This document shows positions 6,401 to 23,232 of a stretch of 64,000 nucleotides of DNA, in pieces. The position numbers and the translations under genes are program-made. The DNA comes from Candidatus Binatia bacterium (lineage in GTDB: Bacteria > Desulfobacterota > Binatia > UBA9968): positions 1,211-65,210 of the forward strand of contig JBGPGE010000008.1 in assembly GCA_041483675.1 (NCBI GenBank), read 5' to 3'. Positions within the stretch are counted from its first letter, which is position 1, and each line of letters begins with the position of its first letter. Below the pieces are notes generated by a model that searched no databases, was not told the origin of the DNA, and saw only the letters and a program-made list of their open reading frames with translations.

Positions 6401-6425
6401 CAGAGCGGCTCCGTTGATTCGCGCA

Positions 6426-7678: not shown

Positions 7679-7693
7679 GCAGAAACCATGCCA
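7679..7693 (-). promoter_or_regulatory. sigma54 -24/-12 promoter (TGGCATGGTTTCTGC)
   Basis: GG and GC separated by exactly 10 nt. 70 nt upstream of the usp ATG at 7608, in the correct orientation. Confidence 0.6.
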
Positions 7694-7754
7694 AGGAGCG
7701 AGTCCTCGGAGACGCCGCTCGTTTCATTCGAATCCCCCGATAATTCTCAGTGTC

Positions 7755-7771
7755 TTTCGCACAAGTGAAAA
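7755..7771. promoter_or_regulatory. candidate enhancer (UAS) inverted repeat TTTCGCAC-AA-GTGAAAA
   Basis: Lies between the two divergent sigma54 promoters, 65-95 nt from each. Resembles the palindromes at 15350, 16981 and 20073. Confidence 0.35.
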
Positions 7772-7853
7772 AAACGGCGTCGAAACTTGCAGCGATGCGA
7801 AACAATGGATCGCCGCCGGCTGCGATATCGCCCTCTTCGCGCGCGCCTGAGGG

Positions 7854-7868
7854 AGGCATGTTTCTTGC
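7854..7868 (+). promoter_or_regulatory. sigma54 -24/-12 promoter (AGGCATGTTTCTTGC)
   Basis: GG-N10-GC spacing. 30 nt upstream of the GTG start at 7899 (AAGGAGG RBS lies between). Confidence 0.55.
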
Positions 7869-7898
7869 TCATGTTCGGCGCTGCAAGGAGGAAACGCC

Positions 7899-8813
7899 GT
7901 GTACACAAGAATCTTAGTCCCGCTGGACGGATCGCCGCGATCCGAGGGAATTCTGCCTTACACCCGCGCTTTAGCGAACGCGCATAAAATCCCGCTGGAG
8001 CTGCTGCATGTCATAGAGCCTCAAATTATTTCCACCTTCTCCGACCCGGCTCATGCGCGCTATGCGGATGTCGTGGAAGCCGACATGCGAAGAAACGGCC
8101 TCGCCTATCTGAAGACGGTCGCCGCGTCGCTCCCCAACTCCGCGGCGGTGCGCTGTTCGGTGTACGTGGGAAATCCCGCCGAGGTGATCGTCGACAGCGC
8201 CGCGGGCCAGGCCGGCACCTTGATAACCATGGCGACGCACGGCCGTTCCGGGATTCAGCGCTGGCTGATCGGCAGCGTGGCCGACAAGGTGCTGCACGGA
8301 ACAACCAGCCACCTCCTTTTGGCCCGAACCGAGACCGGCCACAAAAATCACGAATCGGCTGCTCTCAAAACGGTCATCGCGCCGCTGGACGGCTCCGGCC
8401 TTGCCGAGACTGCGCTGCCCGCCGTCGTTGCCCTGGCCAAAACCATGGCCCTGGAGATCGTGCTGGTCCGGGCGTTCATCCCGCCTTCGGGCGCTCTATA
8501 CGCCACCGACGAATATGTGCCCAACCTGATCGAAATCACCGAGCAGGCGCGACGGGAAGTGAAAAGCTACCTGGAGGGAAAAGTTCAGCAATTGCAGGCA
8601 GAAGGATTGAGCCGAGTCTCTTACCTGCTCGTGGAAGGGCAGGCCGCCGCCGAGATCATCGATCTGGCGCGCAAGACTCCCGACAATCTGGTGGCCATCT
8701 CCACCCACGGGAGATCGGGGGTGGGCCGCTGGGTGTTGGGCAGCGTCACCGACCGCGTGGTGCGCTACTCGGGCGATCCGGTGCTGATAATTCCGCCGAA
8801 CAAAGGCAAGTAG
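7899..8813 (+). CDS. tandem universal stress protein (two Usp domains)
   Basis: Two repeats of the Usp signature (ATHGRSGIQRWLIGSVADKVL and STHGRSGVGRWVLGSVTDRVV). Confidence 0.9.
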   Translation: MYTRILVPLDGSPRSEGILPYTRALANAHKIPLELLHVIEPQIISTFSDPAHARYADVVEADMRRNGLAYLKTVAASLPNSAAVRCSVYVGNPAEVIVDSAAGQAGTLITMATHGRSGIQRWLIGSVADKVLHGTTSHLLLARTETGHKNHESAALKTVIAPLDGSGLAETALPAVVALAKTMALEIVLVRAFIPPSGALYATDEYVPNLIEITEQARREVKSYLEGKVQQLQAEGLSRVSYLLVEGQAAAEIIDLARKTPDNLVAISTHGRSGVGRWVLGSVTDRVVRYSGDPVLIIPPNKGK

Positions 8814-8835
8814 GTCCAGCGAAGCCCGCGCCATT

Positions 8836-8993
8836 CGTCATGCCCGCGAAAGCCGGCATCCAGAACCCCCACTAAATCTCCCCCTTGCTAAGGGGCGACC
8901 CCCTCTTAATCTCCCCCTTTGTAAGGGGGAGAGACAGAGGGGGTATGGATTCCGGCTCGCCCCCCGCTTTCACGGGGGTCGGCCGGAATGACG
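8836..8993. repeat. composite intergenic hairpin repeat (GTCATnCCCGC...GCGGGnATCC family plus CCCCTT...AAGGGG hairpins)
   Basis: Unit cgtcatgcccgcgaaagccggcatccag with inverted partner ggattccggc...gccggaatgacg. Two internal cccctt/aagggg hairpins. Related units at 16015, 39825, 46495 and 54801. Confidence 0.7.
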
Positions 8994-9027
8994 TTCGGAA
9001 TTAGCTGACGAATTTTCGAGAGGCAGG

Positions 9028-9453
9028 CTAGCGCCACAGCCGGCGTAACTCTTCCGGCAGGATATTCTTGACGTCGTCGATCTCGCCGTCGCTGATGTGC
9101 CTCGCCAGCACGTTAAAGACTGCGCGAGCGACCTTTTCCGCGTCTACCCCCTCGCTGTTTCTGAACGCGCTCTTCACATGAGCGAGGAATTCGTCCTGGT
9201 GCCGCTCCTTGACGGGCTTACCGCTGGGATTCCAACCCTCGTAGTAACAACCCCGAACCAGCATCGGCAACTGGGCCGCAAGGTGCGCGGCCTCCGCGAC
9301 CGAGAGCCGATCGCGCAGCGCGTGAAGCACGCTCCTGAGCGCCGTGTAGGCCTTATGCTCGTCCTCCCACCCCAGCTCCCGCATGAGATCGGTCAGCCAG
9401 ATATGGGTTTTCTCCAGAGTCTTGCTGAAGAGTGTGTTGACGTTTGCGTTCAT
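9028..9453 (-). CDS. DUF2267 domain-containing protein
   Basis: Typical DUF2267 sequence (TLEKTHIWLTDLMRELG...AYTALRSVLHALRDRLSVAEAAHLAAQLPMLVRGCYYEGW). Confidence 0.8.
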   Translation of the reverse strand: MNANVNTLFSKTLEKTHIWLTDLMRELGWEDEHKAYTALRSVLHALRDRLSVAEAAHLAAQLPMLVRGCYYEGWNPSGKPVKERHQDEFLAHVKSAFRNSEGVDAEKVARAVFNVLARHISDGEIDDVKNILPEELRRLWR

Positions 9454-9486
9454 CCCGTGTCCCCCCTTGCTTATCCCGTGCGTGGA

Positions 9487-11952
9487 TCACGTCCCCGCCG
9501 GGGACCCTTCGCGACCGTTTGCGCTGAAGAACCCTTTGAGCCCCAACGCCAAGTCTCTGAGCCTGCGACCGACCGCGTCGTTCACGGTTCCTTCCTCCCC
9601 TATTCTCCCCGCACGCATCCCGGTGAGGATCTCCAGACCTTCGTCGATCGTGCGCACCGGATAGATGTGAAACTTGCGCTCCGCCACCGCCTGAACGACA
9701 TCGGCGCGAAGGATCAGATTGCGAACGTTCGCCGCGGGGATCATGACGCCTTGCTTGCCCGACAGTTCCGTTGTCCGGCAAACGTCGTAGAAGCCCTCGA
9801 CCTTTTCATTCACGCCGCCGATCGCCTGCACTTCGCCCGACTGGTTCACCGATCCGGTCACCGCGATGTCCTGGCGCAGCGGGATGCCCGAAAGACGGGA
9901 CAACAGCGCATAGAGCTCGGCCGAGGAGGCGCTGTCGCCCTCTACGCCGGTGTAGGATTGCTCGAAACAGAGACTCGCTGATAGAGCCAGCGGTTTGTCC
10001 TGACCGAAGCGGTTTCGAAGGTAGCCGGACAGAATGAGCACCCCTTTGTCGTGGATGCTCCCGCTCAAGTGAGACTCGCGCTCGATGTTAACGATCCCCG
10101 CTTGACCCATCGCCACGCTGGCCGTAACTCGCGCGGGCCGGCCGAACGTGTAGGTTCCGATATCGAGCACCGACAGCCCGTTGACCTGCCCTACTTTCCG
10201 GCCGTCGATGTCGATGAGCAGCGTGCCCTTCGCGATCAATTCTCTGATCTCCTCCTCGATGCGGTTCGAGCGAAACACTCTCTGCTGAAGCGCCCTTTCG
10301 ATATGGCGGCTGCCGACCGTTTGATCTTTGTCCTTCCGGGCCCAATAGGCGGCTTCACGCACCAGATCGGCGACTTCCGCGTAGGATGCCGAGACCTTTT
10401 CCCGATCCTCCGCTTTCCGAGCGCCGAACTCGGCCAACCGCTCGACGGCCCCGTGATCGAGGTGCGGGAGCTTCTCCTCGCTGCAGAGTTTCGCGACCCA
10501 CTGGGCATACACCAACAGGTGGCCCTGCTCCAGTTCCATGGCGTCGCGAAAATCCGCCCGCACCTTGAAGATCGCGCGGAATTCCTCATCCCAGATGCAT
10601 AGGAGGTGATAAAGCAGCGGGCTGCCGACGACAACTACCTTCGTGTTGATGGCCACCGGCTCGGGCTTCAAACCGGAGGCGGAGAAGAGGGCGAAAGGTT
10701 CGTAGGTCTCCATCTCGATCAGACCGCTTCTCAGCGTGCGCCTGAGAACCTTCCACACCGCCGGCTCGGTCAGAGCATCCTCCAGGCTGAAAATCAAATA
10801 GCCGCCGTGGGCGCGCAACAGCGACCCGGACTTGATCCGCGTAAAATTCGTCACCACCCGCCCGAAGCGATCCACCACTCGCTCGATGGTTCCGAAGAGA
10901 TTCAAATACGTCGGCGAGCCTTCGACCAGCACGGGCGCGCCCTCGGTCCCGGAGTTATCCACGACCAGATTCACGTCGTATTCCAAAAAGGCGTCACGCT
11001 CCTGCTGGTGGGGGGCAAACAGGAAGGGCATTAAGGGAGCCGTCCCTTCTTTAAAATCGTCCAGGTTGTCGAGCATGTGCGCCCGCACCTCTAAAAGGTA
11101 GGAGCTCACTTTTTTATTGTCCATCTCGCGCTCGATCTCCGCGATCAAGGGATTGAGAAGCTGCTCGCAGAACCGGCGCTCCACCATACGGATATCGGCC
11201 TCCATCTCGCGCATGACCTCGCGCTGCTTGCCGGCCATCTCCGCCATCTCGGCCATCAAGCCCTGCTGCCGTTTTTCGATCTCCGCCTGCTCCGCCTCGC
11301 TCAAGCGAGAAAAATCCTTGGGACTCTGCACCGGCTCGCCGTCGACGATGGGGATAAACAGGATCTCGCCGCCATGACCGACCTGCACCAGGAAGCCTCT
11401 CTCCCGCGCCAGCTTTTCAAACTGCGCGCTTAGCTCTTGCGCCCGCCTGCCGTACTTCTCTCTCAGCAGCGTCTTTTCCCTGTCGAATGCCTCATGGCGA
11501 AAAGCCTTGGGAAGTTCCTCTCTCAACCGTTTGACCAGGTTGCGCATCAACTCTCTCAGGCGATGGCCTTTCCCCGACTCAAGATAGACCGCCTGTGGAG
11601 CATCGGGCCGCTGGAAATTGTGCACGTATACCCAATCGCCCGGCGTCGGCGAGGCGGCCGCCCGCTCGGCAATCCAGTGCTGGAGAGCCGGCAGCTTCTC
11701 GGCTCCGGCGAGACCCGAGACAAAGATGTTGAATCCGCTTTGGGGCATGCCGAGACCGAGTTCAAGGGCGGCCAGCGCGCGTTCCTGTCCGGCGAAACCC
11801 AGCGCCGGGGTGAGCTCTTCCGTCGTCGTAAAGGCGATGTCGAGTTTGACGGAGAATCTGAGCTCATCGGCCCGAAGCTCAACCGGAAGGCAGAAGCCGT
11901 CCGATCCTCCAGCGCCTTCTCGCTCCTTTTCCACTATCGCAGCCCGGCTCAT
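9487..11952 (-). CDS. Lon-like protease with degenerate Walker A (LonC-like), S16 Ser-Lys protease domain
   Basis: C-terminal Lon protease domain (VEGDSASSAELYALLS, GGVNEKVEGF). AAA-like domain with GLAGAEKL in place of GxxGxGK[ST] and a coiled-coil insertion. Start chosen at ATG 11952, which overlaps the hsp20 stop as ATGA. Confidence 0.8.
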   Translation of the reverse strand: MSRAAIVEKEREGAGGSDGFCLPVELRADELRFSVKLDIAFTTTEELTPALGFAGQERALAALELGLGMPQSGFNIFVSGLAGAEKLPALQHWIAERAAASPTPGDWVYVHNFQRPDAPQAVYLESGKGHRLRELMRNLVKRLREELPKAFRHEAFDREKTLLREKYGRRAQELSAQFEKLARERGFLVQVGHGGEILFIPIVDGEPVQSPKDFSRLSEAEQAEIEKRQQGLMAEMAEMAGKQREVMREMEADIRMVERRFCEQLLNPLIAEIEREMDNKKVSSYLLEVRAHMLDNLDDFKEGTAPLMPFLFAPHQQERDAFLEYDVNLVVDNSGTEGAPVLVEGSPTYLNLFGTIERVVDRFGRVVTNFTRIKSGSLLRAHGGYLIFSLEDALTEPAVWKVLRRTLRSGLIEMETYEPFALFSASGLKPEPVAINTKVVVVGSPLLYHLLCIWDEEFRAIFKVRADFRDAMELEQGHLLVYAQWVAKLCSEEKLPHLDHGAVERLAEFGARKAEDREKVSASYAEVADLVREAAYWARKDKDQTVGSRHIERALQQRVFRSNRIEEEIRELIAKGTLLIDIDGRKVGQVNGLSVLDIGTYTFGRPARVTASVAMGQAGIVNIERESHLSGSIHDKGVLILSGYLRNRFGQDKPLALSASLCFEQSYTGVEGDSASSAELYALLSRLSGIPLRQDIAVTGSVNQSGEVQAIGGVNEKVEGFYDVCRTTELSGKQGVMIPAANVRNLILRADVVQAVAERKFHIYPVRTIDEGLEILTGMRAGRIGEEGTVNDAVGRRLRDLALGLKGFFSANGREGSPAGT

Positions 11953-12371
11953 AAGGACGATCCCGTCTTGGCGAGTTTCGGCAGGATAACCCGCAGGACC
12001 CCTGCGCTGAAATCGGCCTTGATCCGGTCCTTGTCCACCGACTCGGGGAGCGGTACTTCCCGAAAGAAGTCGCCGAACGAGCGCTCCTGGCAACAGAATC
12101 TGCCATTGCGATAGCTCCGGTCGGAGGAACGTCGGCCCTGCAGGAGCAATTTATTCCCCTCCACTTCTACCTTCACGTCTTCTCTTCTTACCCCGGGAAG
12201 GTCCGCATCAAGAATAAACGCTTCCGGTGTCTCGTAGAGATCCACAGCGGGGCGCCACTCCAGCAACTCGGTCCGAAGGCCCCACGGACGGTGAATAATC
12301 TCCTCGAAGAGCCGGTCCAGCTCTTTGTGGAGGCGTAGCGGGAATGAGTACAACTTACTGTGTGAGGGCAT
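11949..12371 (-). CDS. Hsp20/alpha-crystallin family small heat-shock protein
   Basis: Alpha-crystallin domain (PAVDLYETPEAFILDADLPGVRREDVKVEVEGNKLLLQG...FSAGVLRVILPK). Confidence 0.9.
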   Translation of the reverse strand: MPSHSKLYSFPLRLHKELDRLFEEIIHRPWGLRTELLEWRPAVDLYETPEAFILDADLPGVRREDVKVEVEGNKLLLQGRRSSDRSYRNGRFCCQERSFGDFFREVPLPESVDKDRIKADFSAGVLRVILPKLAKTGSSL

Positions 12372-12414
12372 ACGCTCGCCTCACGATCTCTTGAGCGACC
12401 GACGCGCCTCCTTC

Positions 12415-13875
12415 CTAGGCGGCGACAGGCAGCGTCAATCCCAACCCTTTGGCTACCCCCATGCCGTACTCCGGGTCGGCCTTGAGAAAGTGCTGAATTT
12501 GCCGTTCCTGAATGTAACGCGGCACCGGCTTCATGGCATTGACGATATTTTCTATGAGCCTTCTCTTCTCATCCGGCTTCATCAGACGAAAGAGGTTTCC
12601 CGCCTGGGTGTAGTCGTCGTTGCCCACGCGATGATCGTAGCGGTCCGCGTCCCCGGAGATTCGCAGCGGCGGCTCCTTCAAGCCGGAATCTTCCATCGGC
12701 CCGTCGAAGCTGTTGGGCTCGTAGTTGACGGCGCCGCCGTAGTTGCCGTCGAAGCGCATCGAGCCGTCGCGGTGATAGGTATGCACCGGACAGCGCGCCT
12801 TGTTGACCGGCAGATCCGCGTAGTTGGCGCCGCCGAGGCGGTACCGATGGGCGTCGGCGTAGGCGAAGATGCGGAACTGGAGCATCTTGTCCGGCGAGAA
12901 GCCGATGCCCGGCACGATGTTGGACGGCTCGAACGCCGCCTGTTCGACCTCCGCGAAATAGTTCTCCGGGTTGCGGTTGAGCTCCATGATCCCCACCTCG
13001 ATCAGCGGGTAGTCCTTGTGCGGCCAGACCTTGGTCAGATCGAAGAGGTTATAGGGAGTTTTCTCGGCCTCCTTCTCGGGCATGATCTGGACGCAGAAAC
13101 GCCATTTGGGGAAATCGCCGCGCTCGATCGCTTGAAACAGATCGCGCTGATGGCTCTCGCGATCGTCGCCGACGATCTTGGCGGCTTCGCCGTCGGTGAG
13201 GCATTGTATGCCCTGCATGGTCTTGAAGTGAAACTTCACCCAGAAGCGCTCGTTTTTCCCGTTGATGAGGCTGTAGGTGTGCGAACCATAGCCGTTGATG
13301 TGCCGGTAGCTCTTGGGGAGGCCACGATCGGAAAACAGAATCGTCACCTGATGGAGACTTTTCGGAGAGAGGGACCAAAAATCCCACATCGCCGTGGGGC
13401 TCCGCAGGTTGGTCTTGGGGTCGCGCTTTTGCGTGCGTATGAAGTCCGGAAACTTATACGGGTCGCGCACGAAAAACACCGGCGTATTGTTGCCGACCAG
13501 GTCCCAGTTGCCTTCCTCGGTGTAGAACTTGAGCGCGAAGCCGCGCACGTCGCGCTCCGCGTCGGCGGCGCCGCGCTCGCCGGCAACGGTCGAGAACCGC
13601 AGGAAGCAGTCGGTCTTCTTGCCGGCTTGCGAAAACACCTTGGCCTTCGAGTATCGGGCGATGTCGTGGGTGATAGTCAACGCGCCGTAGGCGCCGGAGC
13701 CTTTGGCGTGGACTATCCGCTCGGGAATCCGCTCCCGATTGAAGTGCGCGTGCTTCTCAAAGAGCTGCCAGTCCTGGACCAGCAGCGGCCCGCGCGCGCC
13801 TGCCGTCAGTGAATTTTGGTTATCGGTGACCGGGCTCCCGCTCGCCGTGGTCAATGTATTTTGCTTCTTCGCCAT
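12415..13875 (-). CDS. katA: monofunctional heme catalase (small-subunit type)
   Basis: [26 protein letters not shown]-like and RLFSY-like regions. 486 aa. Confidence 0.95.
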
Positions 13876-13878
13876 AAA

Positions 13879-14232
13879 TCATTTCTCCTTGGTCGGATTT
13901 CGTTGTTGCGACCGATGCGCAGGCTGCCGGCGGCGCGAAACCCGCTTATTGCATAGCTCCTTGAGCTCGGCGAGCACCATCTGTTCCGCCTCCAACCAGT
14001 CGTCCAGGTCGCAGCCGTGGATCCGGCCCCGTTTGCAGAACAAGTCGTATGCCTTCTCGCCGATTTTTATATGAAGCGTATGGTCGCCGATGGCCGGTTC
14101 GGTGAGATGGAGGGCGAAGGCCGCGCCCGGCGGGGGAAGGCTTTTTCTGTACGATTGATTGCCGATGGTTGACTCGGGAAGGTAAGGGACGTGGGGCGGC
14201 TTCGTCGGCTCGACGTTTTTCTGCTTTTCCAT
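13879..14232 (-). CDS. DUF2934 domain-containing protein
   Basis: IGEKAYDLFCKRGRIHGCDLDDWLEAE matches the DUF2934 signature. 3 nt upstream of the catalase gene. Confidence 0.65.
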   Translation of the reverse strand: MEKQKNVEPTKPPHVPYLPESTIGNQSYRKSLPPPGAAFALHLTEPAIGDHTLHIKIGEKAYDLFCKRGRIHGCDLDDWLEAEQMVLAELKELCNKRVSRRRQPAHRSQQRNPTKEK

Positions 14233-14254
14233 GCGACACTCCCTGCGCGTGAAG

Positions 14255-15220
14255 CTAAGCCGCGCAGCTCTTGTCGTCCCATCCGTTGAGCCGGTCCAGA
14301 TAACCTAACTTTCTAAGCGCCGCGACAATCCGCCGCTCGGATCCCCAATCGCTCCAGAAGACTCCGTGAACCGGCAGGACCAACAGACGGGCGGCGCGCT
14401 CGCGCGCAACTGCTTCCAGCAGGCCGGTGGAAAAATTCATCGGCGCGATCCGGTTGTAGGCCGTTTCGACCGCCTCCGTTTCCGCCGCCGTCCCGATCGC
14501 GTCGTGGATCGAGAGAAACACGCGCCACAACTCCGGAGAAGCTTCACAGACAAGCTCCAACAGAGTCTCAACTTTAAAAACCATCACCATCGTGTTCCAC
14601 AACCCCCCGCCGAGGAGGAACTCCCGCGCCGTATGGCGATCCGGCTTTTCCCTGAACCGCGCGATCCGGTGGACCGCCAAAGGCGCCAGCCGCGTCACCG
14701 GCTCTCCGGGGAGGATGTACCCATACTCGGATTCGGGTTCATCCGGCTTCATCCCTAAAAGAACCAGGTGGCCGGGAAGGCGCTCGACCACGCGGCAAGC
14801 CAGATCGACATGGGCGGCGAAGAGTTCCTCCTCCACAATGAAATGATCGGACGGGAAGACCACGACCGTCGCGTCGGGATATTTTTTGTAGATGTGCATC
14901 AACGGAAGCAGAAGGCCGGGCGCAGTCTCTTTGTTCTCCGGCTGTACCACCACGGTGCTTTGAGGCCGCCGGGAAAGCTGGCGGCGCACTTCTGTGTGAG
15001 TTAAATGCGCCTTGCTTACTACGGTAAAAATGCGCTCGGGCGCGATCAAACTATCGGCCCGCTCGAAGGTATGTTCGAGCATCGAGCGGGCACCGATGAA
15101 ATTCACGTATTGTTTCGGCAGCGCGTTTCCGCGCAGACGCCGGACAAAAGGCTCAAGCCGCCTCCCCTCTCCCGCAGCCAAAACCACCCCGCAGCGATGC
15201 GAGGTGCCGTGAATTTGCAT
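14255..15220 (-). CDS. sugar-phosphate nucleotidyltransferase (mannose-1-phosphate guanylyltransferase-like)
   Basis: VVLAAGEGRRL...LPKQY N-terminal NTP-transferase motif. Start moved to ATG 15220 (GAGGAG RBS) because the sigma54 promoter at 15262-15276 overlaps the longer ORF. Confidence 0.75.
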   Translation of the reverse strand: MQIHGTSHRCGVVLAAGEGRRLEPFVRRLRGNALPKQYVNFIGARSMLEHTFERADSLIAPERIFTVVSKAHLTHTEVRRQLSRRPQSTVVVQPENKETAPGLLLPLMHIYKKYPDATVVVFPSDHFIVEEELFAAHVDLACRVVERLPGHLVLLGMKPDEPESEYGYILPGEPVTRLAPLAVHRIARFREKPDRHTAREFLLGGGLWNTMVMVFKVETLLELVCEASPELWRVFLSIHDAIGTAAETEAVETAYNRIAPMNFSTGLLEAVARERAARLLVLPVHGVFWSDWGSERRIVAALRKLGYLDRLNGWDDKSCAA

Positions 15221-15261
15221 GAATCTATTCTCCTCAATGGCCTGGTTGTAAATCATTAGAA

Positions 15262-15276
15262 GCAATGGCTATGCCA
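15262..15276 (-). promoter_or_regulatory. sigma54 -24/-12 promoter (TGGCATAGCCATTGC)
   Basis: Exact GG-N10-GC spacing. 41 nt upstream of ATG 15220. Heads the apparent six-gene minus-strand operon that runs down to 9028. Confidence 0.65.
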
Positions 15277-15316
15277 CGGCGACCCGCTATATTTTCCCGG
15301 CGGTGGGGAAACCGAG

Positions 15317-15334
15317 CTTGTCAACCTTGACAAG
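15317..15334. promoter_or_regulatory. perfect palindrome CTTGTCAA-CC-TTGACAAG
   Basis: Seen directly, between the divergent sigma54 promoters at 15262 and 15417. Confidence 0.35.
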
Positions 15335-15349
15335 AAACCGGGAGCCTCC

Positions 15350-15365
15350 TTTGCACGGGTGCAAA
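15350..15365. promoter_or_regulatory. candidate UAS, perfect palindrome TTTGCAC-GG-GTGCAAA
   Basis: Seen directly. 52 nt upstream of the + promoter and 74 nt upstream of the - promoter. Confidence 0.45.
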
Positions 15366-15416
15366 TAAAGCGGAGGGTGGCCCGCCATTCACGGCAGGGA
15401 GACCGGCAGGCAGAGA

Positions 15417-15431
15417 TGGCACGCTTTATGC
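15417..15431 (+). promoter_or_regulatory. sigma54 -24/-12 promoter (TGGCACGCTTTATGC)
   Basis: GG-N10-GC spacing. 31-49 nt upstream of the usp start candidates. Confidence 0.65.
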
Positions 15432-15480
15432 GGCGCGGAGTTGGCGGGAGCGGAAAACGGCAATGCGAAGCGAAGAAGAG

Positions 15481-15990
15481 ATGGCGAACCAAATCAAAAA
15501 AATCCTCGCCCCGACTGACCTGTCTGACTTCTCGCAGGCCGGGGTGCGCTACGCTCTGAACCTGGCGAGAGCGGTCGGCGCGGAGGTGACGGTTTATTAC
15601 GTCGTCGACCGGCGCGATCTAGCGCAGCACCATGACGGGGAGGAAGAAAAGGTGGGCATCGCCGCCGCCTTTCAGCAGTACGAGAGGCTCAGAAAAAGCC
15701 GCCAGCTTGCCCTGGCCCGATTCCTGAACACTCATTTCTCGGATCTGATTCCGTGGGTGAAAATTCGCGAAAAGGTGGAACTCGGCGTGCCGGCAAAGAG
15801 CATCGTCGAATGGGCGAAGACCGACGGCGCCGACCTCGTTGTGATCTCCATCTGCGGGAAAGGCGGCGCAGCCCACCAATTTGTCGGGAGCATCGCTGCG
15901 GAAGTGGTGCGGAACTCGTCTTGTCCGGTCCTGACGATCCCTCCGGAACCTGAGGAGGCGGAGAACCGCCAACTCATCGCGACAGGCTAA
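15481..15990 (+). CDS. universal stress protein
   Basis: KILAPTDLSDFS...ICGKGGAAHQFVGSIAAEVVRNSSCPVLTI. The start may instead be ATG 15463. Confidence 0.85.
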   Translation: MANQIKKILAPTDLSDFSQAGVRYALNLARAVGAEVTVYYVVDRRDLAQHHDGEEEKVGIAAAFQQYERLRKSRQLALARFLNTHFSDLIPWVKIREKVELGVPAKSIVEWAKTDGADLVVISICGKGGAAHQFVGSIAAEVVRNSSCPVLTIPPEPEEAENRQLIATG

Positions 15991-16014
15991 CGGAACGGTC
16001 GGCCCCTCTCGCTA

Positions 16015-16126
16015 TCATTCCCGCGAAAGCGATCCCTCACGGCGCGAGTCTTCGGGCCGCTCGGCTTCGCAGTGGAAGCCGGCGCTGGTTCGACCAAGCT
16101 CACCACCCTGAGCCAAGTCGAAGGGC
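16015..16126. repeat. degenerate copies of two intergenic repeat families
   Basis: atcattcccgcgaaagcgatccc (GTCATTCCCGC family) and ggttcgaccaagctcaccaccctgagccaagtcgaagggc (same family as 46408-46457). Confidence 0.5.
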
Positions 16127-16215
16127 CGGTCGTAGAGCCTGCGCATCCGATACTGCCGGGGGGAATAAGCAGCGACCCATTGCGCAGGCTTGGGTGAGGG
16201 TGGCGGCTTCCATCG

Positions 16216-16830
16216 TCAAGGGCGAAGCGCGGCGCTCAACGAATGTTTCCCCGCGAGCTTGACGGTGCTGGCCTGAGGCCCCCGGAGACCCTCCTCCTCC
16301 GCAAAAGTCACATCGACCCCGACTTTCAACCGCTCAAAGCCCGGCTCCAGCACGCTGTTTCGGTGAAAATAGATTTCCCTGCCGTCCGCGGTTTTCAGAA
16401 ATCCATAGCCTTCTTCGGAGAATAGCTTGGCGACGCGGGCGAGAGGCTGAGCCTCGTGGATTTTTTTGGTTCCGCGCTGGCGGCGCGCGAAATCCTGAAG
16501 TTTGCGGCGGGAGGCGTCGAAGGCGTCGCGCACGGCTACGTAAACATCGCTGTGCGCCGCGTGTTGGCTCGGCTCGCGGTTGATCACCAGCTCTCCGCCC
16601 GGGACGGCGATATCGATTCGCACATGGTAAAGCTTGCCCTTATGGTGGTGGCGGTGCGGCGCCTCGACGACGACTTTGCAACTGACAACCCTGTCATAGA
16701 ACGATTCCAGCTTGGCCGCCTTGTCCCGGATGTCGGCCTCGACCGCCTTGGAGGGAGACATGTTGCGAAACGCCACTCGCAGCGGTAACTCGGTGAAGAT
16801 TTTCTCGCTATTGCCGGATAGTTTTTTCAT
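16216..16830 (-). CDS. HPF/RaiA ribosome hibernation factor fused to a C-terminal cold-shock domain
   Basis: N-terminal part has S30AE/HPF features (LPLRVAFRNMSPSKAVEADIRDKAAKLESFYDRVVSCKVVVE). C-terminal part is a CSD (EGYGFLKTADGREIYFHRNSV...GVDVTFAEEEGLRGPQASTV). ATG 16830 has a GAGGAGG RBS. Confidence 0.8.
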   Translation of the reverse strand: MKKLSGNSEKIFTELPLRVAFRNMSPSKAVEADIRDKAAKLESFYDRVVSCKVVVEAPHRHHHKGKLYHVRIDIAVPGGELVINREPSQHAAHSDVYVAVRDAFDASRRKLQDFARRQRGTKKIHEAQPLARVAKLFSEEGYGFLKTADGREIYFHRNSVLEPGFERLKVGVDVTFAEEEGLRGPQASTVKLAGKHSLSAALRP

Positions 16831-16871
16831 AAGTCGTTCAACCTCCTCTGGATTTACCGAGCCTATAAGTG

Positions 16872-16886
16872 GCAAATCTTATGCCA
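16872..16886 (-). promoter_or_regulatory. sigma54 -24/-12 promoter (TGGCATAAGATTTGC)
   Basis: Consensus spacing. 41 nt upstream of ATG 16830. Confidence 0.65.
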
Positions 16887-16980
16887 CCATCGTTTCGGTC
16901 GATTTACGCCGACGCCGAAAGCCGGAAAAGGAAAATCCCGGGGCCAAACTTCCCACATCCGAGAACTACCAACCGGCGCC

Positions 16981-16996
16981 TTCGCAGCCGTGAGAA
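16981..16996. promoter_or_regulatory. candidate UAS-like imperfect inverted repeat TTCGCAG-CC-GTGAGAA
   Basis: Resembles the 7755, 15350 and 20073 elements. About 95 nt upstream of the minus-strand promoter at 16872. Confidence 0.25.
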
Positions 16997-17018
16997 GACC
17001 GACCTCTTCGCAAAGCCC

Positions 17019-17033
17019 TGGCACATCCCTTGC
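17019..17033 (+). promoter_or_regulatory. sigma54 -24/-12 promoter (TGGCACATCCCTTGC)
   Basis: Perfect TGGCAC-N5-TTGC. 47 nt upstream of the osmC ATG at 17081. Confidence 0.7.
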
Positions 17034-17080
17034 TCTCGATTCTTCCAGGGGCGATAGGCTGACGGAAAACGGAGGCTCAA

Positions 17081-17545
17081 ATGACTTTCGTCTACGAAAC
17101 AGAGATCGAGTGGACCGGAGAGCGCGCCGGCCGCTTGCGAGCGCCGCATCTGCCGCCGCTCGAAGTCTCCGCGCCGCCGGAATTCGACGGACGCGACGGC
17201 GTGTGGACTCCCGAGCATCTCTATGTCGGCGCCGTAGCGTCGTGCTTCATGACGACATTTCTGGCGATCGCGCGGAATTCCAAGCTGGAGTTTGTCAGTT
17301 TCACGACAACGGCAAGCGGCAAGCTGGAGAAGGTACCGGAAGCCGGATTGCAGATGACGGAGATTGTCTTGAAGCCGCGGCTCGTCATTCACAGCATCGG
17401 CGACACCGACCGCGCGCGGCGGATTATCGAAAAGGCAGAGAAAAATTGCTTGATTTCAAACTCTATCAAGACGGCGATCCGCGTCACCCCTGAAATTTAC
17501 CATCACCAGGACCCCGTTTACCCGTGTCCGACGTTGGCGATTTAG
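17081..17545 (+). CDS. OsmC/Ohr family peroxiredoxin-like protein
   Basis: Two conserved Cys contexts (VGAVASCFMTTF and AEKNCLISNS). About 150 aa. Confidence 0.85.
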   Translation: MTFVYETEIEWTGERAGRLRAPHLPPLEVSAPPEFDGRDGVWTPEHLYVGAVASCFMTTFLAIARNSKLEFVSFTTTASGKLEKVPEAGLQMTEIVLKPRLVIHSIGDTDRARRIIEKAEKNCLISNSIKTAIRVTPEIYHHQDPVYPCPTLAI

Positions 17546-17574
17546 CCTACGAGGAGATTAAGCAGGGGCGGCTT

Positions 17575-18225
17575 ATGCCATTCCAAAATCGCGAAGAAGC
17601 GGCGCATCTCCTGGCGCAAAGGTTGACGAGATACCGGCGATTCAACCCGCTGGTCCTGGCTATACCGCGGGGCGCGGTTGCAATGGCCAAGATCATCGCG
17701 GACGCATTGGGCGGCGAGCTTGATGTGGTATTGGTCCACAAGTTGGGAGCGCCGGGTCAGCCCGAGTTGGCCATCGGGGCGGTCGATGAGCAGGGGCAGG
17801 TTTATTTGTCCGACCACGCCGAGGCCCTCGACATCAGCCCCGAATATTTGGCCGCCGAAACGGAAGCCCAACTCAAGGTCCTGCGCGCGCGGCGCGCCGC
17901 CTACACCCCTCTCCGAGCCCCCGCCGACCCTGCCGGACGCGTGGTCATCGTCGTGGACAACGGCGTCGCCACGGGAGCCACTCTGATCGCCGGCTTGCGG
18001 GCTGTGCGCGCCAGAGGGCCGGCCAGACTCGTCGCCGCTGTAGCCGTGGCGCCAAGAGAAACTTTCAGGAAGATCGCTCGGGAGGCGGACGAGACCGTTT
18101 GTCTGGAAGTGCCGGCGATCTTTTTCGCCGTAGGAGAGTTTTTCAAGGACTTCTCTCAGGTAACCGACGAAGAGGTGGCGGCGGTTTTGCGCCAGAGCGG
18201 TCCACGCTCAGGGCTGGGTAAATGA
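17575..18225 (+). CDS. phosphoribosyltransferase family protein
   Basis: FQNREEAAHLLAQRL...VLAIPRGAV...VVIVVDNGVATGATL PRPP-binding loop. Start at MPFQNRE. The longer ORF overlaps osmC. Confidence 0.8.
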   Translation: MPFQNREEAAHLLAQRLTRYRRFNPLVLAIPRGAVAMAKIIADALGGELDVVLVHKLGAPGQPELAIGAVDEQGQVYLSDHAEALDISPEYLAAETEAQLKVLRARRAAYTPLRAPADPAGRVVIVVDNGVATGATLIAGLRAVRARGPARLVAAVAVAPRETFRKIAREADETVCLEVPAIFFAVGEFFKDFSQVTDEEVAAVLRQSGPRSGLGK

Positions 18226-18246
18226 GCGGCTCGCCGGCCGCGCCGG

Positions 18247-18891
18247 CTATCGATCCGGCCGGCGGCAAAGATGGCGCTCAAACCATTCGGATGCCAGGCG
18301 CGCGACTTCTTCCAAAGCGCCGGGTTCTTCAAACAGATGTGTCGCTCCCGGAATAATCTTTAACTCCTTCTCCGCTTTGAGCCGTTTGTAGGCCCGCTGA
18401 TTGAGATCGATCACGATATCGTCAAGGCCGCCGACGATGAGCAGAGTAGGCGCCGTGACTTGCTCCAACGCCGTCCAAGCCAGATCCGGCCTGCCCCCAC
18501 GGGACACCACTGCGCTAACGACCGGTCCCAATGCTGCGGCGGCGCGAAGGGCTGCTGCGGCTCCGGTGCTGGCCCCGAAATAGCCGACGGCAAGGGCTGC
18601 GGTTGCAGCCGACTTAGCCACCCAGCGCGTGGCGTTCTCCAATCGATTGGTCAGCAGATCGATATCGAAACGCGTTTCGTAGTCGGCATCCTCCTGCGGC
18701 GTCAAGAGATCCATCAGCAGGGTGCCAAGACCGCTCGCGCGCAATACTTGCGCGACATACTGATTTCTTGGGCTGCGGCGGCTGCTGCCGCTGCCATGAG
18801 CGAACAAAACAACCGCGTCCGCGTCCGAGGGAATCGCCAGCTCTCCCTCGAGCACGACGGAGTCCACCGGGATGTGGACCAGTTCCTTCAC
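18247..18891 (-). CDS. dienelactone hydrolase-like alpha/beta hydrolase
   Basis: VVLFAHGSGSSRRSPRN...GYFGASTGAAAAL nucleophile elbow, and IPGATHLFEEPG. Confidence 0.8.
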   Translation of the reverse strand: MKELVHIPVDSVVLEGELAIPSDADAVVLFAHGSGSSRRSPRNQYVAQVLRASGLGTLLMDLLTPQEDADYETRFDIDLLTNRLENATRWVAKSAATAALAVGYFGASTGAAAALRAAAALGPVVSAVVSRGGRPDLAWTALEQVTAPTLLIVGGLDDIVIDLNQRAYKRLKAEKELKIIPGATHLFEEPGALEEVARLASEWFERHLCRRPDR

Positions 18892-18923
18892 GCCGCCCTC
18901 ACGCCCTGAGACTTAGATACAGA

Positions 18924-18950
18924 AAAGGCCCAGGTTATGCCTGGGCCTTT
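18924..18950 (-). terminator. rho-independent terminator after the CBS gene
   Basis: 11-bp stem aaaggcccagg/cctgggccttt with a 5-nt loop, followed on the minus strand by TTTTCTGT. Confidence 0.55.
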
Positions 18951-19000
18951 CCGGGCAAGGGCAGCCACGCCCAACTCCATCTGCGCCAAACGCCTTCGCG

Positions 19001-19429
19001 CTAGGCGGTCCCGACCGGCGTCGTTTCCGCCACAGCCTTACCCAGCTCAGCCATCTCGTCGCTGAGCAGTGCGATGACGTCGTCCATGGTGACGATGCCG
19101 AGCACCTCGTCCAGGCCGTCAACCACCGGAACGCGCCGAACGTGCTGCGCGTGCATGAGAGTGGTCAACTCTCTGAGGCCCTTGTCTACGGGGATCCGCA
19201 CCGGGTTGCGAGTCATAATCTCGCTCACCTTGGTCTTAAGCGGATCCCGCTTCTCTCCGGTCACCTTTAACGCGACATCGCGGTCGGTCAGGATGCCGCA
19301 CAACTTGCCGCGTTCCTCTACCACCATACAGCCGACGTTCTTTTCCCCCATCATGCGGCAGGCCTCCACGATGTTGTTTTCCGGAGAGATACTGACAACG
19401 CGCCGTTGGCAAAATTCCTGCAATGACAT
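19001..19429 (-). CDS. CBS domain pair protein
   Basis: Two CBS motifs (VGCMVVEERGKLCGILTDRD and VRRVPVVDGLDEVLGIVTMDD). Confidence 0.9.
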   Translation of the reverse strand: MSLQEFCQRRVVSISPENNIVEACRMMGEKNVGCMVVEERGKLCGILTDRDVALKVTGEKRDPLKTKVSEIMTRNPVRIPVDKGLRELTTLMHAQHVRRVPVVDGLDEVLGIVTMDDVIALLSDEMAELGKAVAETTPVGTA

Positions 19430-19440
19430 GGCACACCTCC

Positions 19441-19944
19441 CTACTCCACCTTCACCTTAGTTTCTTTTTTCTTCGCCTCCTCGGTCTTGGGGAGGTGAAT
19501 TTCCAGCACGCCGTTCTTGAACGACGCTCGCGCTTTCTCCATTTGAACGTCCGCGGGCAACTCCATGCTGCGGCTGAAGGAGCCGTACGACCGCTCGCAG
19601 CGGTAGAAATTCTTTTCCTTAACTTCCTCCTCCTTTTTCTTCTCGCCCTTGATCGTCAGGTGGTGATCGGCCAGGTTCACCTCGATATCTTCTTTGCTCA
19701 TGCCCGGCAGCTCCACTTTGGCCACGATCTCGTCTTTCTCCTCGTAGAGATCCACGGCCGGAGTGGCGAGGGCGGCCGTCCTCGGTCCCCACCAGCGCTC
19801 ATCCAAAATTGGCCGTAAGCGGCGACCGAAGAAGTCTTCGAACATATCCCCCATTTCCCGCTCCCATCGGGCCATTTCCGTAAATGGGCGCCACGGGACC
19901 AGTTTTTTCTCCTCTTTCGAGCCTTGCGGCATTGGCTTTGCCAT
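19441..19944 (-). CDS. Hsp20/alpha-crystallin family small heat-shock protein
   Basis: PAVDLYEEKDEIVAKVELPGMSKEDIEVNLADHHLTIKGE...FKNGVLEIHLPK. Start at ATG 19944 with an AAAGGAGGA RBS. The 255-aa ORF in the track is an over-extension. Confidence 0.9.
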   Translation of the reverse strand: MAKPMPQGSKEEKKLVPWRPFTEMARWEREMGDMFEDFFGRRLRPILDERWWGPRTAALATPAVDLYEEKDEIVAKVELPGMSKEDIEVNLADHHLTIKGEKKKEEEVKEKNFYRCERSYGSFSRSMELPADVQMEKARASFKNGVLEIHLPKTEEAKKKETKVKVE

Positions 19945-19987
19945 AGCGAGTCCTCCTTTCGTGACCGTTGCTATCCGATTCAAGAAA

Positions 19988-20002
19988 GCATCTTTCATGC
20001 CA
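19988..20002 (-). promoter_or_regulatory. sigma54 -24/-12 promoter (TGGCATGAAAGATGC)
   Basis: GG-N10-GC spacing. 43 nt upstream of ATG 19944. Confidence 0.6.
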
Positions 20003-20072: not shown

Positions 20073-20090
20073 TTTTGCGCCCGTGCAAAA
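20073..20090. promoter_or_regulatory. candidate UAS near-palindrome TTTTGCGC-CC-GTGCAAAA
   Basis: 70-88 nt upstream of the sigma54 promoter at 19988. Same half-site as 15350-15365. Confidence 0.4.
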
Positions 20091-20219
20091 AACTACGGGC
20101 AAGGAATCGCGAAGCTGCAAACGGGATTTGTCTATGATAGAAAGGTCGCTGCGCCTGAGCGGCGTTCGCGTTCGCTACGAGGGGGCATAGTTCTTGCTCG
20201 CTTTTCATTCAATGTAAAC

Positions 20220-20320
20220 CCCGCCTCTTGAGGCGGGCACAAAACCGATGGGGTTTCCAAAGGGGAGAAGCGGCAGCTCTCCCCTTTGGTCGAACACGGG
20301 GATTCAAACCCCGTGTTCGA
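20220..20320. repeat. three consecutive GC-rich hairpins (6-bp, 12-bp and 12-bp stems)
   Basis: cccgcc-tcttga-ggcggg; ccaaaggggaga-agcggcagc-tctcccctttgg; tcgaacacgggg-attcaaa-ccccgtgttcga. The last two are directly abutting. Confidence 0.7.
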
Positions 20321-20349
20321 TATAAGTTGATTTTTGAAATTTACGCACT

Positions 20350-21681
20350 ATGGCCGACGAGCGCGTTTTGATAATGGGGGCGGCAGGCCGGGACTTTCAC
20401 ACCTTCAACGTCTACTTCCGCGACAATCCCGACTACAAAGTGGTGGCTTTCACCGCCGCGCAAATCCCCGGCATCGAGAACCGCTGGTATCCGGCAAGCC
20501 TCAGCGGGAAGTTCTATCCCCAGGGCATTCCCATCTACCCGGAAGATTGGCTGGAGTGCCTCATTCGCGACCAGGGCGTGAACCAGGTGGTGTTTGCGTA
20601 TAGCGACGTCTCTCATGCGACGGTCATGCACCTGGCCTCGCGCGCGCTCGCCGCCGGCGCCGACTTTCGTCTGTTGGGGCCGGCGCATAGTTTCCTCAAG
20701 TCGACGCGCCCGGTGATTTCGGTCTGCGCCGTGCGCACCGGCTGCGGCAAAGGCTCGGTGGTCCGCCGGATCGCGACGCTGCTCAGGGAGCGGCAGCTTC
20801 GGCCGGTGGTGGTGCGCCATCCCATGCCCTACGGCGACCTGGCCGGTCAGGCGGTGCAGCGCTTCGCCGCGATCGAAGATTGCGACCGGCAGCATTGCAC
20901 GGTTGAAGAGCGGGAAGAGTACGAACAACACATCCAACAGGGCGTGGTCGTGTACGCCGGCGTCGACTACGAGCGCATTCTCCGCTCGGCGGAGCAGGAG
21001 GCGGACGTCATTCTCTGGGACGGCGGAAACAACGACTGGCCGTTTTTCCGGCCCGACCTGGAGATCGTGCTGCTCGATCCGCATCGCGCCGGCCACGAGC
21101 TGCTCTACCATCCCGGCGAAACGAATCTCCGGCGGGCGCATATCCTGATCGTCAACAAGCTCGACTCCGCCCCGGTCGAGGGCGTCCGGCAAGTGATAAA
21201 GAACATCGCCGAGATCAACCCGGCCGCCACGGTGATTCAGGCCCGTTCGGCGCTGTCCGTCGACCGCCCTGAGTTGATCCGCGGCAAACGGGTCCTGGTC
21301 GTCGAAGACGGGCCGACGCTGACGCACGGCGAGATGGGATACGGCGCCGGCGTGATCGCGGCCCGGCAAAACGGAGCTTCCGAACTGCTCGACCCGCGCC
21401 CTTTCGCCAAGGGAAGTCTGGTCGAGACGTTTCGCCGCCATCCCTGGGTGACGCAGGCGCTTCCCGCCATGGGCTATTCGACTGCTCAACTCGATGACCT
21501 CGCCGCTACGATCGCCGCCGTTTCTTGCGACGCGCTCGTGCTGGCGACGCCGATCGACCTGCTCCGCCTGATTCCCATAGACCGGCCGTGCGCGCGCGTG
21601 CGCTACGAGCTTGCGGAGATCGGCCGCCCCGATCTGGCCGAGGCGATCGCAGTATTTGTGCGCCAGCGTGTGAAGCGATGA
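20350..21681 (+). CDS. cyclic 2,3-diphosphoglycerate synthetase-like GTPase-fold protein (COG2403-like)
   Basis: N-terminus VLIMGAAGRDFHTFNVYFRDNP and P-loop CAVRTGCGKGSV. Recognised from memory of archaeal CpgS-like proteins. Confidence 0.65.
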   Translation: MADERVLIMGAAGRDFHTFNVYFRDNPDYKVVAFTAAQIPGIENRWYPASLSGKFYPQGIPIYPEDWLECLIRDQGVNQVVFAYSDVSHATVMHLASRALAAGADFRLLGPAHSFLKSTRPVISVCAVRTGCGKGSVVRRIATLLRERQLRPVVVRHPMPYGDLAGQAVQRFAAIEDCDRQHCTVEEREEYEQHIQQGVVVYAGVDYERILRSAEQEADVILWDGGNNDWPFFRPDLEIVLLDPHRAGHELLYHPGETNLRRAHILIVNKLDSAPVEGVRQVIKNIAEINPAATVIQARSALSVDRPELIRGKRVLVVEDGPTLTHGEMGYGAGVIAARQNGASELLDPRPFAKGSLVETFRRHPWVTQALPAMGYSTAQLDDLAATIAAVSCDALVLATPIDLLRLIPIDRPCARVRYELAEIGRPDLAEAIAVFVRQRVKR

Positions 21682-23093: not shown

Positions 23094-23128
23094 TCGGCGC
23101 CTTTTCGATCAACCTGCATTGCTTTGTC

Positions 23129-23158
23129 AGAAGTGCGAATAGCCCTATGGGCACTTCT
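23129..23158. promoter_or_regulatory. inverted repeat AGAAGTGC-N14-GCACTTCT in the leader of the activator gene
   Basis: Perfect 8-bp arms seen directly. 36-65 nt upstream of ATG 23093. Confidence 0.3.
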
Positions 23159-23217
23159 CACACGCGCGAAAAAGTGACGCGGATTAAGCGAACTTCAATA
23201 CTTTGTGTTGTGGTCTT

Positions 23218-23232
23218 GCAAATCTCAGACCA
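23218..23232 (-). promoter_or_regulatory. weaker sigma54-like element (TGGTCTGAGATTTGC)
   Basis: Correct GG-N10-GC spacing and a TTTGC -12 box, but the -24 box is TGGTCT. 124 nt upstream of the activator ATG. Confidence 0.3.

Follow-up and report, generated by a model that had tools for sequence, protein, structure and literature searches.

The subject of this study is a 64,000-nucleotide (nt) stretch of DNA from a Candidatus Binatia bacterium, an uncultured soil organism of the phylum Binatota (assembly GCA_041483675.1, contig JBGPGE010000008.1, positions 1,211 to 65,210 of the forward strand), which we call the window. Its left part holds, from 2.9 to 21.7 kb, an island of stress genes, and next to the island lie, both on the minus strand, the gene of an NtrC-family response regulator and sigma-54 activator (21744-23093) and, upstream of it, that of a cytoplasmic sensor kinase (23323-25371). 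Housekeeping genes fill the right half of the window (Dus, Maf, ABC-F, RecJ, SecF, Tgt, QueA, UDG, CoaBC). An initial annotation of the DNA, made from its letters without database searches, had proposed that seven sigma-54 (-24/-12) promoters, six of them in three divergent pairs, drive the island. All seven motifs were confirmed, but two more had been missed: the predicted promoters of the island number eight and form four divergent pairs, and an orphan site lies in the right half of the window. The shared sites upstream of the promoters and the likely signal had gone unnoticed as well.

The closest homologues of the activator, 57-96% identical, are encoded in metagenome-assembled genomes that carry the label Candidatus Binatia or Binatota and had earlier been assigned to Deltaproteobacteria. 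Loci from these and other genomes are referred to below by number where they have to be told apart; in the two nearest, L003 and L004, the activator is 96% identical.

Probable sigma-54 promoters and their transcription units

The motifs have the canonical geometry of sigma-54 promoters, GG-N10-GC; the consensus of the class is TGGCAC-N5-TTGCW. The seven 15-mers of the initial annotation are all in place and on the right strands, and the genes assigned to them were confirmed by Pfam. All seven are intergenic and correctly oriented, and the distances from the end of the motif to the start codon, measured in coordinate order, are 70, 30, 41, 31, 41, 47 and 43 nt, within the range of 30-70 nt that had been claimed.

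In the leftmost pair, TGGCATGGTTTCTGC (7679-7693, minus strand; identical in L003 and L004) is predicted to drive a usp gene (7608-7177) and AGGCATGTTTCTTGC (7854-7868, plus strand) a tandem-Usp gene (7899-8813). The next pair would serve, with TGGCATAGCCATTGC (15262-15276, minus strand), a six-gene operon (15220-9028) for a nucleotidyltransferase (15220-14255), a DUF2934 protein, catalase, Hsp20, LonC and a DUF2267 protein, and, with TGGCACGCTTTATGC (15417-15431, plus strand), another usp gene (15463-15990). The third pair consists of TGGCATAAGATTTGC (16872-16886, minus strand), which would drive a gene for a fusion of HPF with a cold-shock domain (16830-16216), and TGGCACATCCCTTGC (17019-17033, plus strand), which would drive the genes for OsmC (17081-17545) and a phosphoribosyltransferase (17524-18225). 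The seventh promoter of the initial annotation, TGGCATGAAAGATGC (19988-20002, minus strand), would drive an hsp20 gene (19944-19441) and a CBS gene (19429-19001). It forms the fourth divergent pair together with an eighth promoter that had been overlooked, GGGCATAGTTCTTGC (20183-20197, plus strand), which would drive a gene for a protein of 443 amino acids (20350-21681). Searches with this protein gave no Pfam, NCBIfam or PDB sequence match; the source annotations of its homologues read cyclic 2,3-diphosphoglycerate (cDPG) synthase or predicted GTPase.

The genes listed for the operons were borne out, but two of the units are probably longer than listed. Genes for a dihaem cytochrome c (7124-6426), a COX1-like subunit (6400-5039), a DUF6448 protein (4961-3855) and UbiA (3855-2953), all on the minus strand and separated by 25-77 nt, come after the first usp gene (start at 7608) and are probably co-transcribed with it. 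The hsp20-CBS operon probably extends to the alpha/beta-hydrolase gene that comes after it (18891-18247). The shorter start at 15220, which had been proposed for the first gene of the six-gene operon on account of the promoter upstream, is supported both by its GAGGAG ribosome-binding site and by the length of 321 amino acids at which L003 and L004 have the orthologue called.

The statement that the housekeeping half of the window has no comparable match is not quite right. A ninth site, TGGCATTCTCTTTGC (59452-59466, minus strand), lies 48 nt upstream of the gene for a secreted DUF5666 protein (59403-58330). No palindrome of the kind described below was found near it, so this orphan sigma-54-like promoter is probably served by another activator; no second sigma-54 activator is encoded in the window.

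Frequency and placement of the motif

Matches in the window were counted with a loose pattern, GGCAY-N6-TGC, and with a strict one, DGGCAY-N6-TGC, which demands a base other than C before the GG, and expectations were taken from 100 dinucleotide-preserving shuffles. The loose pattern has 15 matches against 4.4 +/- 2.4 expected and the strict pattern 9 against 2.9 +/- 1.8; no shuffle in the 100 reached either count. Nine of the 15 loose matches are intergenic, in a window whose intergenic share is 12% (binomial P = 1.6e-5). The strict matches are without exception (9 of 9) intergenic and aimed at a start codon, 30-152 nt away. In all six loose matches that the strict pattern discards, C precedes the GG, and the majority of them lie inside coding sequence. 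One of these, CGGCATTCACCCTGC at 25387 on the plus strand, overlaps the start of the kinase gene about 100 nt upstream of a selenocysteine tRNA gene; it matches the motif poorly and is probably due to chance.

The positions that the pattern leaves free are informative as well. Among 56 sites, T occupies position -26 in 44 and position -15 in 41, and a purine follows GGCAY in 43. These preferences follow the sigma-54 consensus and are thus evidence that the motifs are sigma-54 promoters. The density of motifs is 4.2 per 10 kb in the island and 0.2 in the remaining window; it is 1.9 in 15 Binatia loci with orthologues of the activator, against 0.39-0.49 in 65 loci whose activators are at most 53% identical, a four- to fivefold difference.

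Sigma-70-like matches are about as frequent as expected (3 against 3.8), and the four divergent intergenic regions contain a single weak one. It sits between the sigma-54 motif and the start codon of the first usp gene (7657-7628, minus strand) and may add basal usp expression. We also considered that the four divergent regions might be copies of one repeat. This was rejected, since a comparison of the four regions revealed no extended repeats in common; the motifs are therefore not copies of one duplicated element.

A palindrome between the divergent promoters

Each of the four divergent intergenic regions contains one strong copy of a 16-bp palindrome, TTnnCAC-N2-GTGnnAA. In the leftmost region it is TTCGCACAAGTGAAAA (7756-7771), which is conserved in L003; from here the -24 elements on the two sides are 71 and 91 bp downstream. 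The copy ahead of the six-gene operon, TTTGCACGGGTGCAAA (15350-15365), is a perfect palindrome with 82 and 60 bp between it and the downstream -24 elements, and is accompanied by a weaker second site, TTGTCAACCTTGACAA (15318-15333), at a distance of 32 bp. The region between the HPF and OsmC genes likewise combines a strong site, TTCGCAGCCGTGAGAA (16981-16996), with a weaker one 31 bp away, TTCCCACATCCGAGAA (16950-16965). In the fourth region, TTTGCGCCCGTGCAAA (20074-20089) is 80 and 102 bp upstream of the two -24 elements, and L003 has TTTGCACGCGTGCAAA at the equivalent position. At seven of the eight promoters, the centre of the palindrome is 60-103 bp upstream of the -24 element, the exception being the OsmC promoter with 31 bp. 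Activator sites of sigma-54 promoters are expected about 70-150 bp upstream.

Two more palindrome-like sites (23124-23139 and 23155-23170), 31 bp apart and conserved in L003, stand before the activator gene, with their centres 38 and 69 bp upstream of its start codon. Where the sites are paired, their centres are thus 31-32 bp apart, which amounts to three turns of the helix and is usual for NtrC enhancers. If no more than one mismatch is tolerated, the window has 7 matches to the palindrome against 1.0 +/- 1.0 expected, and 6 of the 7 fall within the five regulatory regions, namely the four strong central copies and the two sites before the activator gene. The seventh, a palindrome-like site at 234-249, was examined as a further target and rejected, as about one chance match is expected and nothing promoter-like is nearby.

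Because the palindrome pattern had been derived from the window, it was tested on independent Binatia loci. In 15 such loci, a strict sigma-54 motif is found 20-200 bp downstream of 8 of the 12 palindrome matches, against an expectation of 4.9% (P = 1.3e-8). We predict that the palindrome is the binding site of the activator encoded next to the island.

The activator

The activator has the Pfam domains Response_reg, Sigma54_activat and HTH_8 and is the sole sigma-54 activator encoded in the window. Its GAFTGA loop (residues 218-223) is intact and its gene is 1.74 kb from the nearest promoter, in agreement with the initial annotation, which had placed an NtrC-type activator of this kind about 1.7 kb away. 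Asp53, the GAFTGA loop and the recognition helix of the helix-turn-helix (HTH) domain are invariant among the orthologues. The constancy of the recognition helix fits a conserved binding site. The protein does not reach the equivalog cut-offs of NCBIfam: AtoC scores best, with 438 bits against 714 required, NtrC has 391 against 559, and all other named groups are below their cut-offs too. By these scores the activator is placed outside the named groups AtoC, NtrC, ZraR, NtrX, GlrR and PilR. We predict that it is the regulator of the island.

The two palindrome-like sites before its own gene imply autoregulation. The arrangement there differs from that of the island promoters, in that both sites lie downstream of the sole -24/-12-like element of the region, TGGTCTGAGATTTGCA (23217-23232, minus strand), which is degenerate (TGGTCT-N5-TTTGCA) and is located 124 nt from the activator ATG. 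In L008 a canonical element, TGGCATAGGATTTGCG, occurs at the same 124-nt distance. The sites would lie inside the would-be leader, where they might act either as a downstream enhancer or as a roadblock. In more distant relatives, the alignment of the region upstream of the activator gene has diverged beyond interpretation.

A paralogous Binatia activator was seen in L040, L041, L044, L047 and L052 (around 10000-12700). It matches the protein of the window only from residue ~141 onwards and therefore seems to be without a REC domain. It is directly followed by a sigma-54 motif and a gene of ~530-545 codons, one member of which, that of L044, was scanned and matches Pfam AAA_33. CBS, HPF, Hsp20 and DksA-type genes behind motifs are found near this paralogous activator, some of them with the same palindrome upstream.

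The sensor kinase

The kinase consists of GAF, PAS, haem-type PAS, HisKA and HATPase domains. Its second PAS domain (residues ~328-454) aligns with the haem domain of Bradyrhizobium FixL (1DP6) at E = 2e-26 and without gaps over 127 residues; the alignment with E. coli DosP is weaker. FixL binds haem through the proximal ligand His200, and the other residues compared here are Arg206 and Arg220, in the numbering of BjFixL. The kinase has H, R and R at the three aligned positions, and these are kept in its orthologues in L003, L007, L011 and L014.

Together with the cytochrome c and haem-copper oxidase genes of the window and a hemerythrin gene in L007, the homology to the FixL haem-PAS and its key residues favours low oxygen as the inducing signal. 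The kinase would be in its "on" state at low oxygen.

The selenocysteine tRNA gene mentioned above (25501-25595, plus strand; anticodon TCA, Rfam 77 bits) adjoins the kinase gene.

Conservation in relatives

L003 and L004 have a compact version of the island in which all eight promoters and all palindromes are kept; the motif of the eighth promoter is identical in both. In L007, where the activator is 78% identical, the gene order is rearranged, and there are again two divergent pairs. Strict motifs are present in L007 upstream of a hemerythrin gene, an operon of usp, kinase and activator genes, two CBS genes, a usp gene, a gene with a tRNA-editing domain and the nucleotidyltransferase gene. 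The same motif pattern was found in L005, L008, L010, L011, L017, L040, L041 and L044. The nucleotidyltransferase gene has an orthologous promoter in L003, L007 and L017, and the HPF orthologues in L011 and L044 have a motif upstream.

Forty open reading frames downstream of motifs in the relatives were scanned with Pfam, along with one reference protein from the window. The commonest families are Usp, CBS, nucleotidyltransferase, HPF and DksA-type zinc finger; Hsp20, phosphoribosyltransferase, hemerythrin and wax-ester/diacylglycerol acyltransferase are among the families found in single cases.

Some target genes are missing or degraded even in the closest relatives. The catalase gene of L003 is split into fragments of 231 and 88 amino acids (17126-18026), that of L004 is not called (13664-14581), and the hsp20 and LonC genes are missing from both loci. 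The degraded catalase gene and the missing hsp20 and LonC genes indicate that the gene set of the regulon turns over rapidly among close strains.

Other features of the island

The eighth promoter is separated from its gene by an element of about 125 nt (20207-20332) with three strong hairpins (RNA fold z = -7.1). L003 and L004 lack the element at the corresponding place, and their promoter is 29 nt from the ATG. It occurs at 95-99% identity on more than 120 metagenome contigs, and the 95 copies for which both flanks are available represent 88 different flank contexts, which identifies it as a dispersed repeat similar to miniature inverted-repeat transposable elements (MITE) or repetitive extragenic palindromes (REP). 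It has no Rfam family. In its present position it may attenuate or stabilise the transcript.

The cytochrome c and the 453-amino-acid COX1-type subunit (5039-7124, minus strand) are encoded between the usp gene and the DUF6448-UbiA genes. The cytochrome c has weak matches to NorB-cytochrome-c-like proteins and to FixO, and the two genes could encode a nitric-oxide reductase or an unusual haem-copper oxidase. L003 and L004 have no such block after the usp gene; in L007 it adjoins a hemerythrin gene with a sigma-54 motif upstream.

Between the convergent tandem-usp and DUF2267 genes (8865-8944) there are tandem and inverted C-rich repeats of 31 nt (ACCCCC..CTCCCCCTT..AAGGGG), which may be a bidirectional terminator or another small repeat element.

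Discussion

We consider it likely that the island between 2.9 and 21.7 kb is a sigma-54 regulon run by the adjacent two-component system, and that this system senses oxygen through the haem-PAS of its kinase. That the motifs are the sigma-54 promoters of a stress-gene island, as the initial annotation had it, is supported by their geometry, their statistics, their agreement with the consensus and their conservation in rearranged relatives, and the domain content of the proteins defines the set of genes behind them. The predicted products of the regulon include five Usp domains, two Hsp20 proteins, a ribosome hibernation factor in which HPF is fused to a cold-shock domain, a CBS-pair protein, OsmC, catalase and LonC, as well as a phosphoribosyltransferase, an alpha/beta-hydrolase, a sugar nucleotidyltransferase and an enzyme similar to cDPG synthase. 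The cytochrome c and haem-copper oxidase pair is probably among the products as well. This composition suggests a programme for survival or dormancy at low oxygen.

The model that we propose for the regulon is as follows. At low oxygen, the deoxy-haem form of the FixL-type kinase would autophosphorylate and pass the phosphate to Asp53 of the NtrC-type activator. The activator would then assemble on the central palindrome, or palindrome pair, of each divergent region. From this central enhancer, its AAA+ ring would contact sigma-54 RNA polymerase at the -24/-12 elements on both sides, and the GAFTGA loop would couple ATP hydrolysis to the opening of the sigma-54 closed complexes. In this way eight transcription units would be switched on together, with autoregulation through the two sites before the activator gene.

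Several points weigh against this model. The RpoN-box peptide was not found in six-frame translations of the window, which is part of a metagenome contig, and of 87 loci, and the Binatota genome paper makes no mention of sigma factors; the conservation of activators with GAFTGA speaks only indirectly for an rpoN gene in this genome. Haem binding and the oxygen response of the kinase are deduced from a sequence similarity of about 40%, and the N-terminal GAF domain and first PAS domain (PAS_4) could respond to another signal. Oxidative stress, and not low oxygen, is what catalase and OsmC point to. At the OsmC promoter, the strong palindrome is too close to the -24 element for looping, so that the weaker site, 63 bp away, would have to serve there. 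The position of both activator-gene sites downstream of a degenerate -24/-12 element, described above, is a further difficulty. Finally, a second reading of the palindrome, TTGCA-N4-TGCAA, is similar to the boxes of CRP/FNR-type proteins, and another regulator could therefore bind it.

Some of these points lead to explanations that share the promoters with our model and depart from it elsewhere. The promoters and the adjacent activator may be real and the signal a different one, namely energy, redox, heat, osmotic or oxidative stress perceived through the GAF or first PAS domain. We regard this as unlikely, while taking it seriously: catalase, OsmC, Hsp20 and LonC are typical of oxidative and heat stress, the kinase does have the two further sensor domains, and in Myxococcus xanthus an NtrC-type system, HsfA/HsfB, activates a heat-shock lon gene. 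Set against this are the strong and gapless match to the FixL haem-PAS, the presence of the proximal histidine and of the equivalents of Arg206 and Arg220 in all orthologues examined, and the association with the cytochrome c and haem-copper oxidase pair here and with hemerythrin in L007. Moreover, regulons that are known to respond to low oxygen, those of NmpR (PMC11841059) and DosR (PMC5309233), have a similar content of Usp, CBS and Hsp20 proteins.

It is also conceivable that the sigma-54 promoters are real but that the palindrome is bound by another protein, for instance of the CRP/FNR type, with the activator sites proper located elsewhere or the island served by another sigma-54 activator. 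The TTGCA-N4-TGCAA core does have the 14-bp format of CRP/FNR boxes, and Binatia genomes encode paralogous activators beside similar genes (L040-L052). We nevertheless judge this very improbable, given that the 64-kb window has no CRP/FNR-type gene, that the palindrome sites, at 60-115 bp upstream of the -24 elements, do not match the -41.5 position at sigma-70 promoters, that the pairs with their spacing of ~31 bp resemble NtrC enhancers, that two of the sites directly precede the activator's own gene, and that the palindrome tracks the orthologues of the activator across loci. As for the idea that the motifs are due to chance or belong to some other repeated element, with the genes driven by sigma-70 promoters, we give it hardly any credence. 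The motif is short, and a sigma-70-like match is present upstream of usp (7657-7628), but the shuffled sequences never attained the observed counts, the strict matches are all intergenic, point towards genes and are conserved in rearranged relatives, the regions have no extended repeats in common, and sigma-70-like matches do not exceed expectation. A sigma-54 regulon under the adjacent FixL-like kinase and NtrC-type activator thus remains the reading that we prefer.

Among characterised systems, NmpRSTU of Myxococcus xanthus is, by our comparison, the closest. NmpR is an NtrC-like protein that binds paired GCGCA-N5-TGCGC sites 14-15 bp apart, needs a sigma-54 site and is induced by hypoxia; its targets include a CBS protein, a USP, cbb3 oxidase and hemN-hemerythrin (PMC11841059). 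As predicted here, the Binatia system has in common with it an NtrC-like regulator, sigma-54 promoters, paired palindromic sites, autoregulation, induction by low oxygen and a haem-dependent kinase on top, and the CBS, Usp, haem-copper oxidase and hemerythrin families recur in the window or in L007. The differences lie in the sensory part, which in M. xanthus is a phosphorelay of the globin-coupled kinase NmpU and the hybrid kinase NmpS and here a single GAF-PAS-PAS kinase without a globin domain, and in the palindrome, for which we find TTnnCAC-N2-GTGnnAA with centres 31-32 bp apart. The regulon described here is also larger, has its targets clustered in four divergent pairs, and is richer in functions of dormancy, represented by Hsp20, HPF, LonC, catalase and OsmC.

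The kinase itself resembles rhizobial FixL, as its PAS is homologous to the haem domain and the equivalents of His200, Arg206 and Arg220 are conserved; unlike in FixL, the haem-PAS comes after a GAF domain and a further PAS domain. High-affinity oxidases and stress proteins belong to FixLJ-FixK regulons too. The control of cbb3 by FixLJ is cited in PMC11841059. The partner of the kinase is different, however: FixJ is LuxR-type and acts at sigma-70 promoters, whereas the adjacent regulator here is NtrC-type and predicted to act at sigma-54 promoters. This is therefore not a FixLJ system, but only a FixL-like sensor module.

In its layout, the island is reminiscent of zraP-zraSR and hyc-hyp of E. 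coli, which are divergent sigma-54 promoter pairs with a shared enhancer. There, too, back-to-back -24/-12 promoters flank activator sites in a short intergenic region; in the Binatia island, by contrast, this arrangement occurs four times within 13 kb under one predicted activator.

In its content, the island comes near to the DosR regulon of Mycobacterium tuberculosis, which comprises USPs, the alpha-crystallin Hsp20, the CBS protein Rv2626c, the ribosome-associated hibernation factor Rv0079 and the phosphoribosyltransferase Rv0571c (PMC5309233), and whose promoters have tandem regulator boxes as a hallmark (PMC3177182). A haem-based kinase (deduced from homology in our case) and a clustered, Usp-rich regulon with Hsp20, a CBS protein, a hibernation factor and a phosphoribosyltransferase are features of both, and so are tandem regulator boxes; wax-ester/diacylglycerol acyltransferase, another member of the DosR regulon, is found in some of the relatives. 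In contrast to the Binatia activator, DosR is NarL-type and acts at sigma-70-type promoters, and DosS and DosT hold their haem in a GAF domain, not in a PAS domain. PDB searches with the CBS, tandem-Usp and phosphoribosyltransferase proteins of the island gave family-level matches only and no specific orthology to proteins of the DosR regulon.

What we describe is the sigma-54 regulon of an NtrC-type two-component system. It is found throughout the related loci of an uncultured phylum, is mechanistically unsurprising but well defined, and probably responds to oxygen. In the literature on sigma-54 in connection with universal stress proteins, Hsp20 and hibernation, we found no description of this regulon. 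Tentatively, and with slightly more doubt than confidence, we suggest that Binatia, reportedly aerobic, share a regulon that depends on sigma-54 and corresponds to the DosR dormancy regulon of mycobacteria. In it a FixL-type haem sensor would be wired directly to an NtrC-type activator, which would fire both flanking promoters from the one central enhancer of each divergent region and bring about hibernation when oxygen runs out, with ribosome hibernation factor, Usp, Hsp20, CBS and protective enzymes taking part. If this is true, three regulator classes, NarL-type DosR, FixJ/FixK and sigma-54/NtrC, have independently taken control of one and the same set of dormancy genes. Beside NmpR of M. 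xanthus, the island would also be a second, independently wired case of a sigma-54-controlled hypoxia regulon of Usp, CBS and oxidase genes.

On the practical side, the promoter positions correct several start codons, and metagenomes can be searched for the regulon with the -24/-12 motif and the palindrome in combination. The model is complete and testable for an uncultured phylum, comprising a sensor, an activator, a binding site, eight promoters and ~25 target genes. According to PMC8262859, Binatota live in soils and sediments as aerobic methylotrophs and alkane degraders, and a hard-wired low-oxygen survival programme would help to explain how they persist across oxygen gradients.

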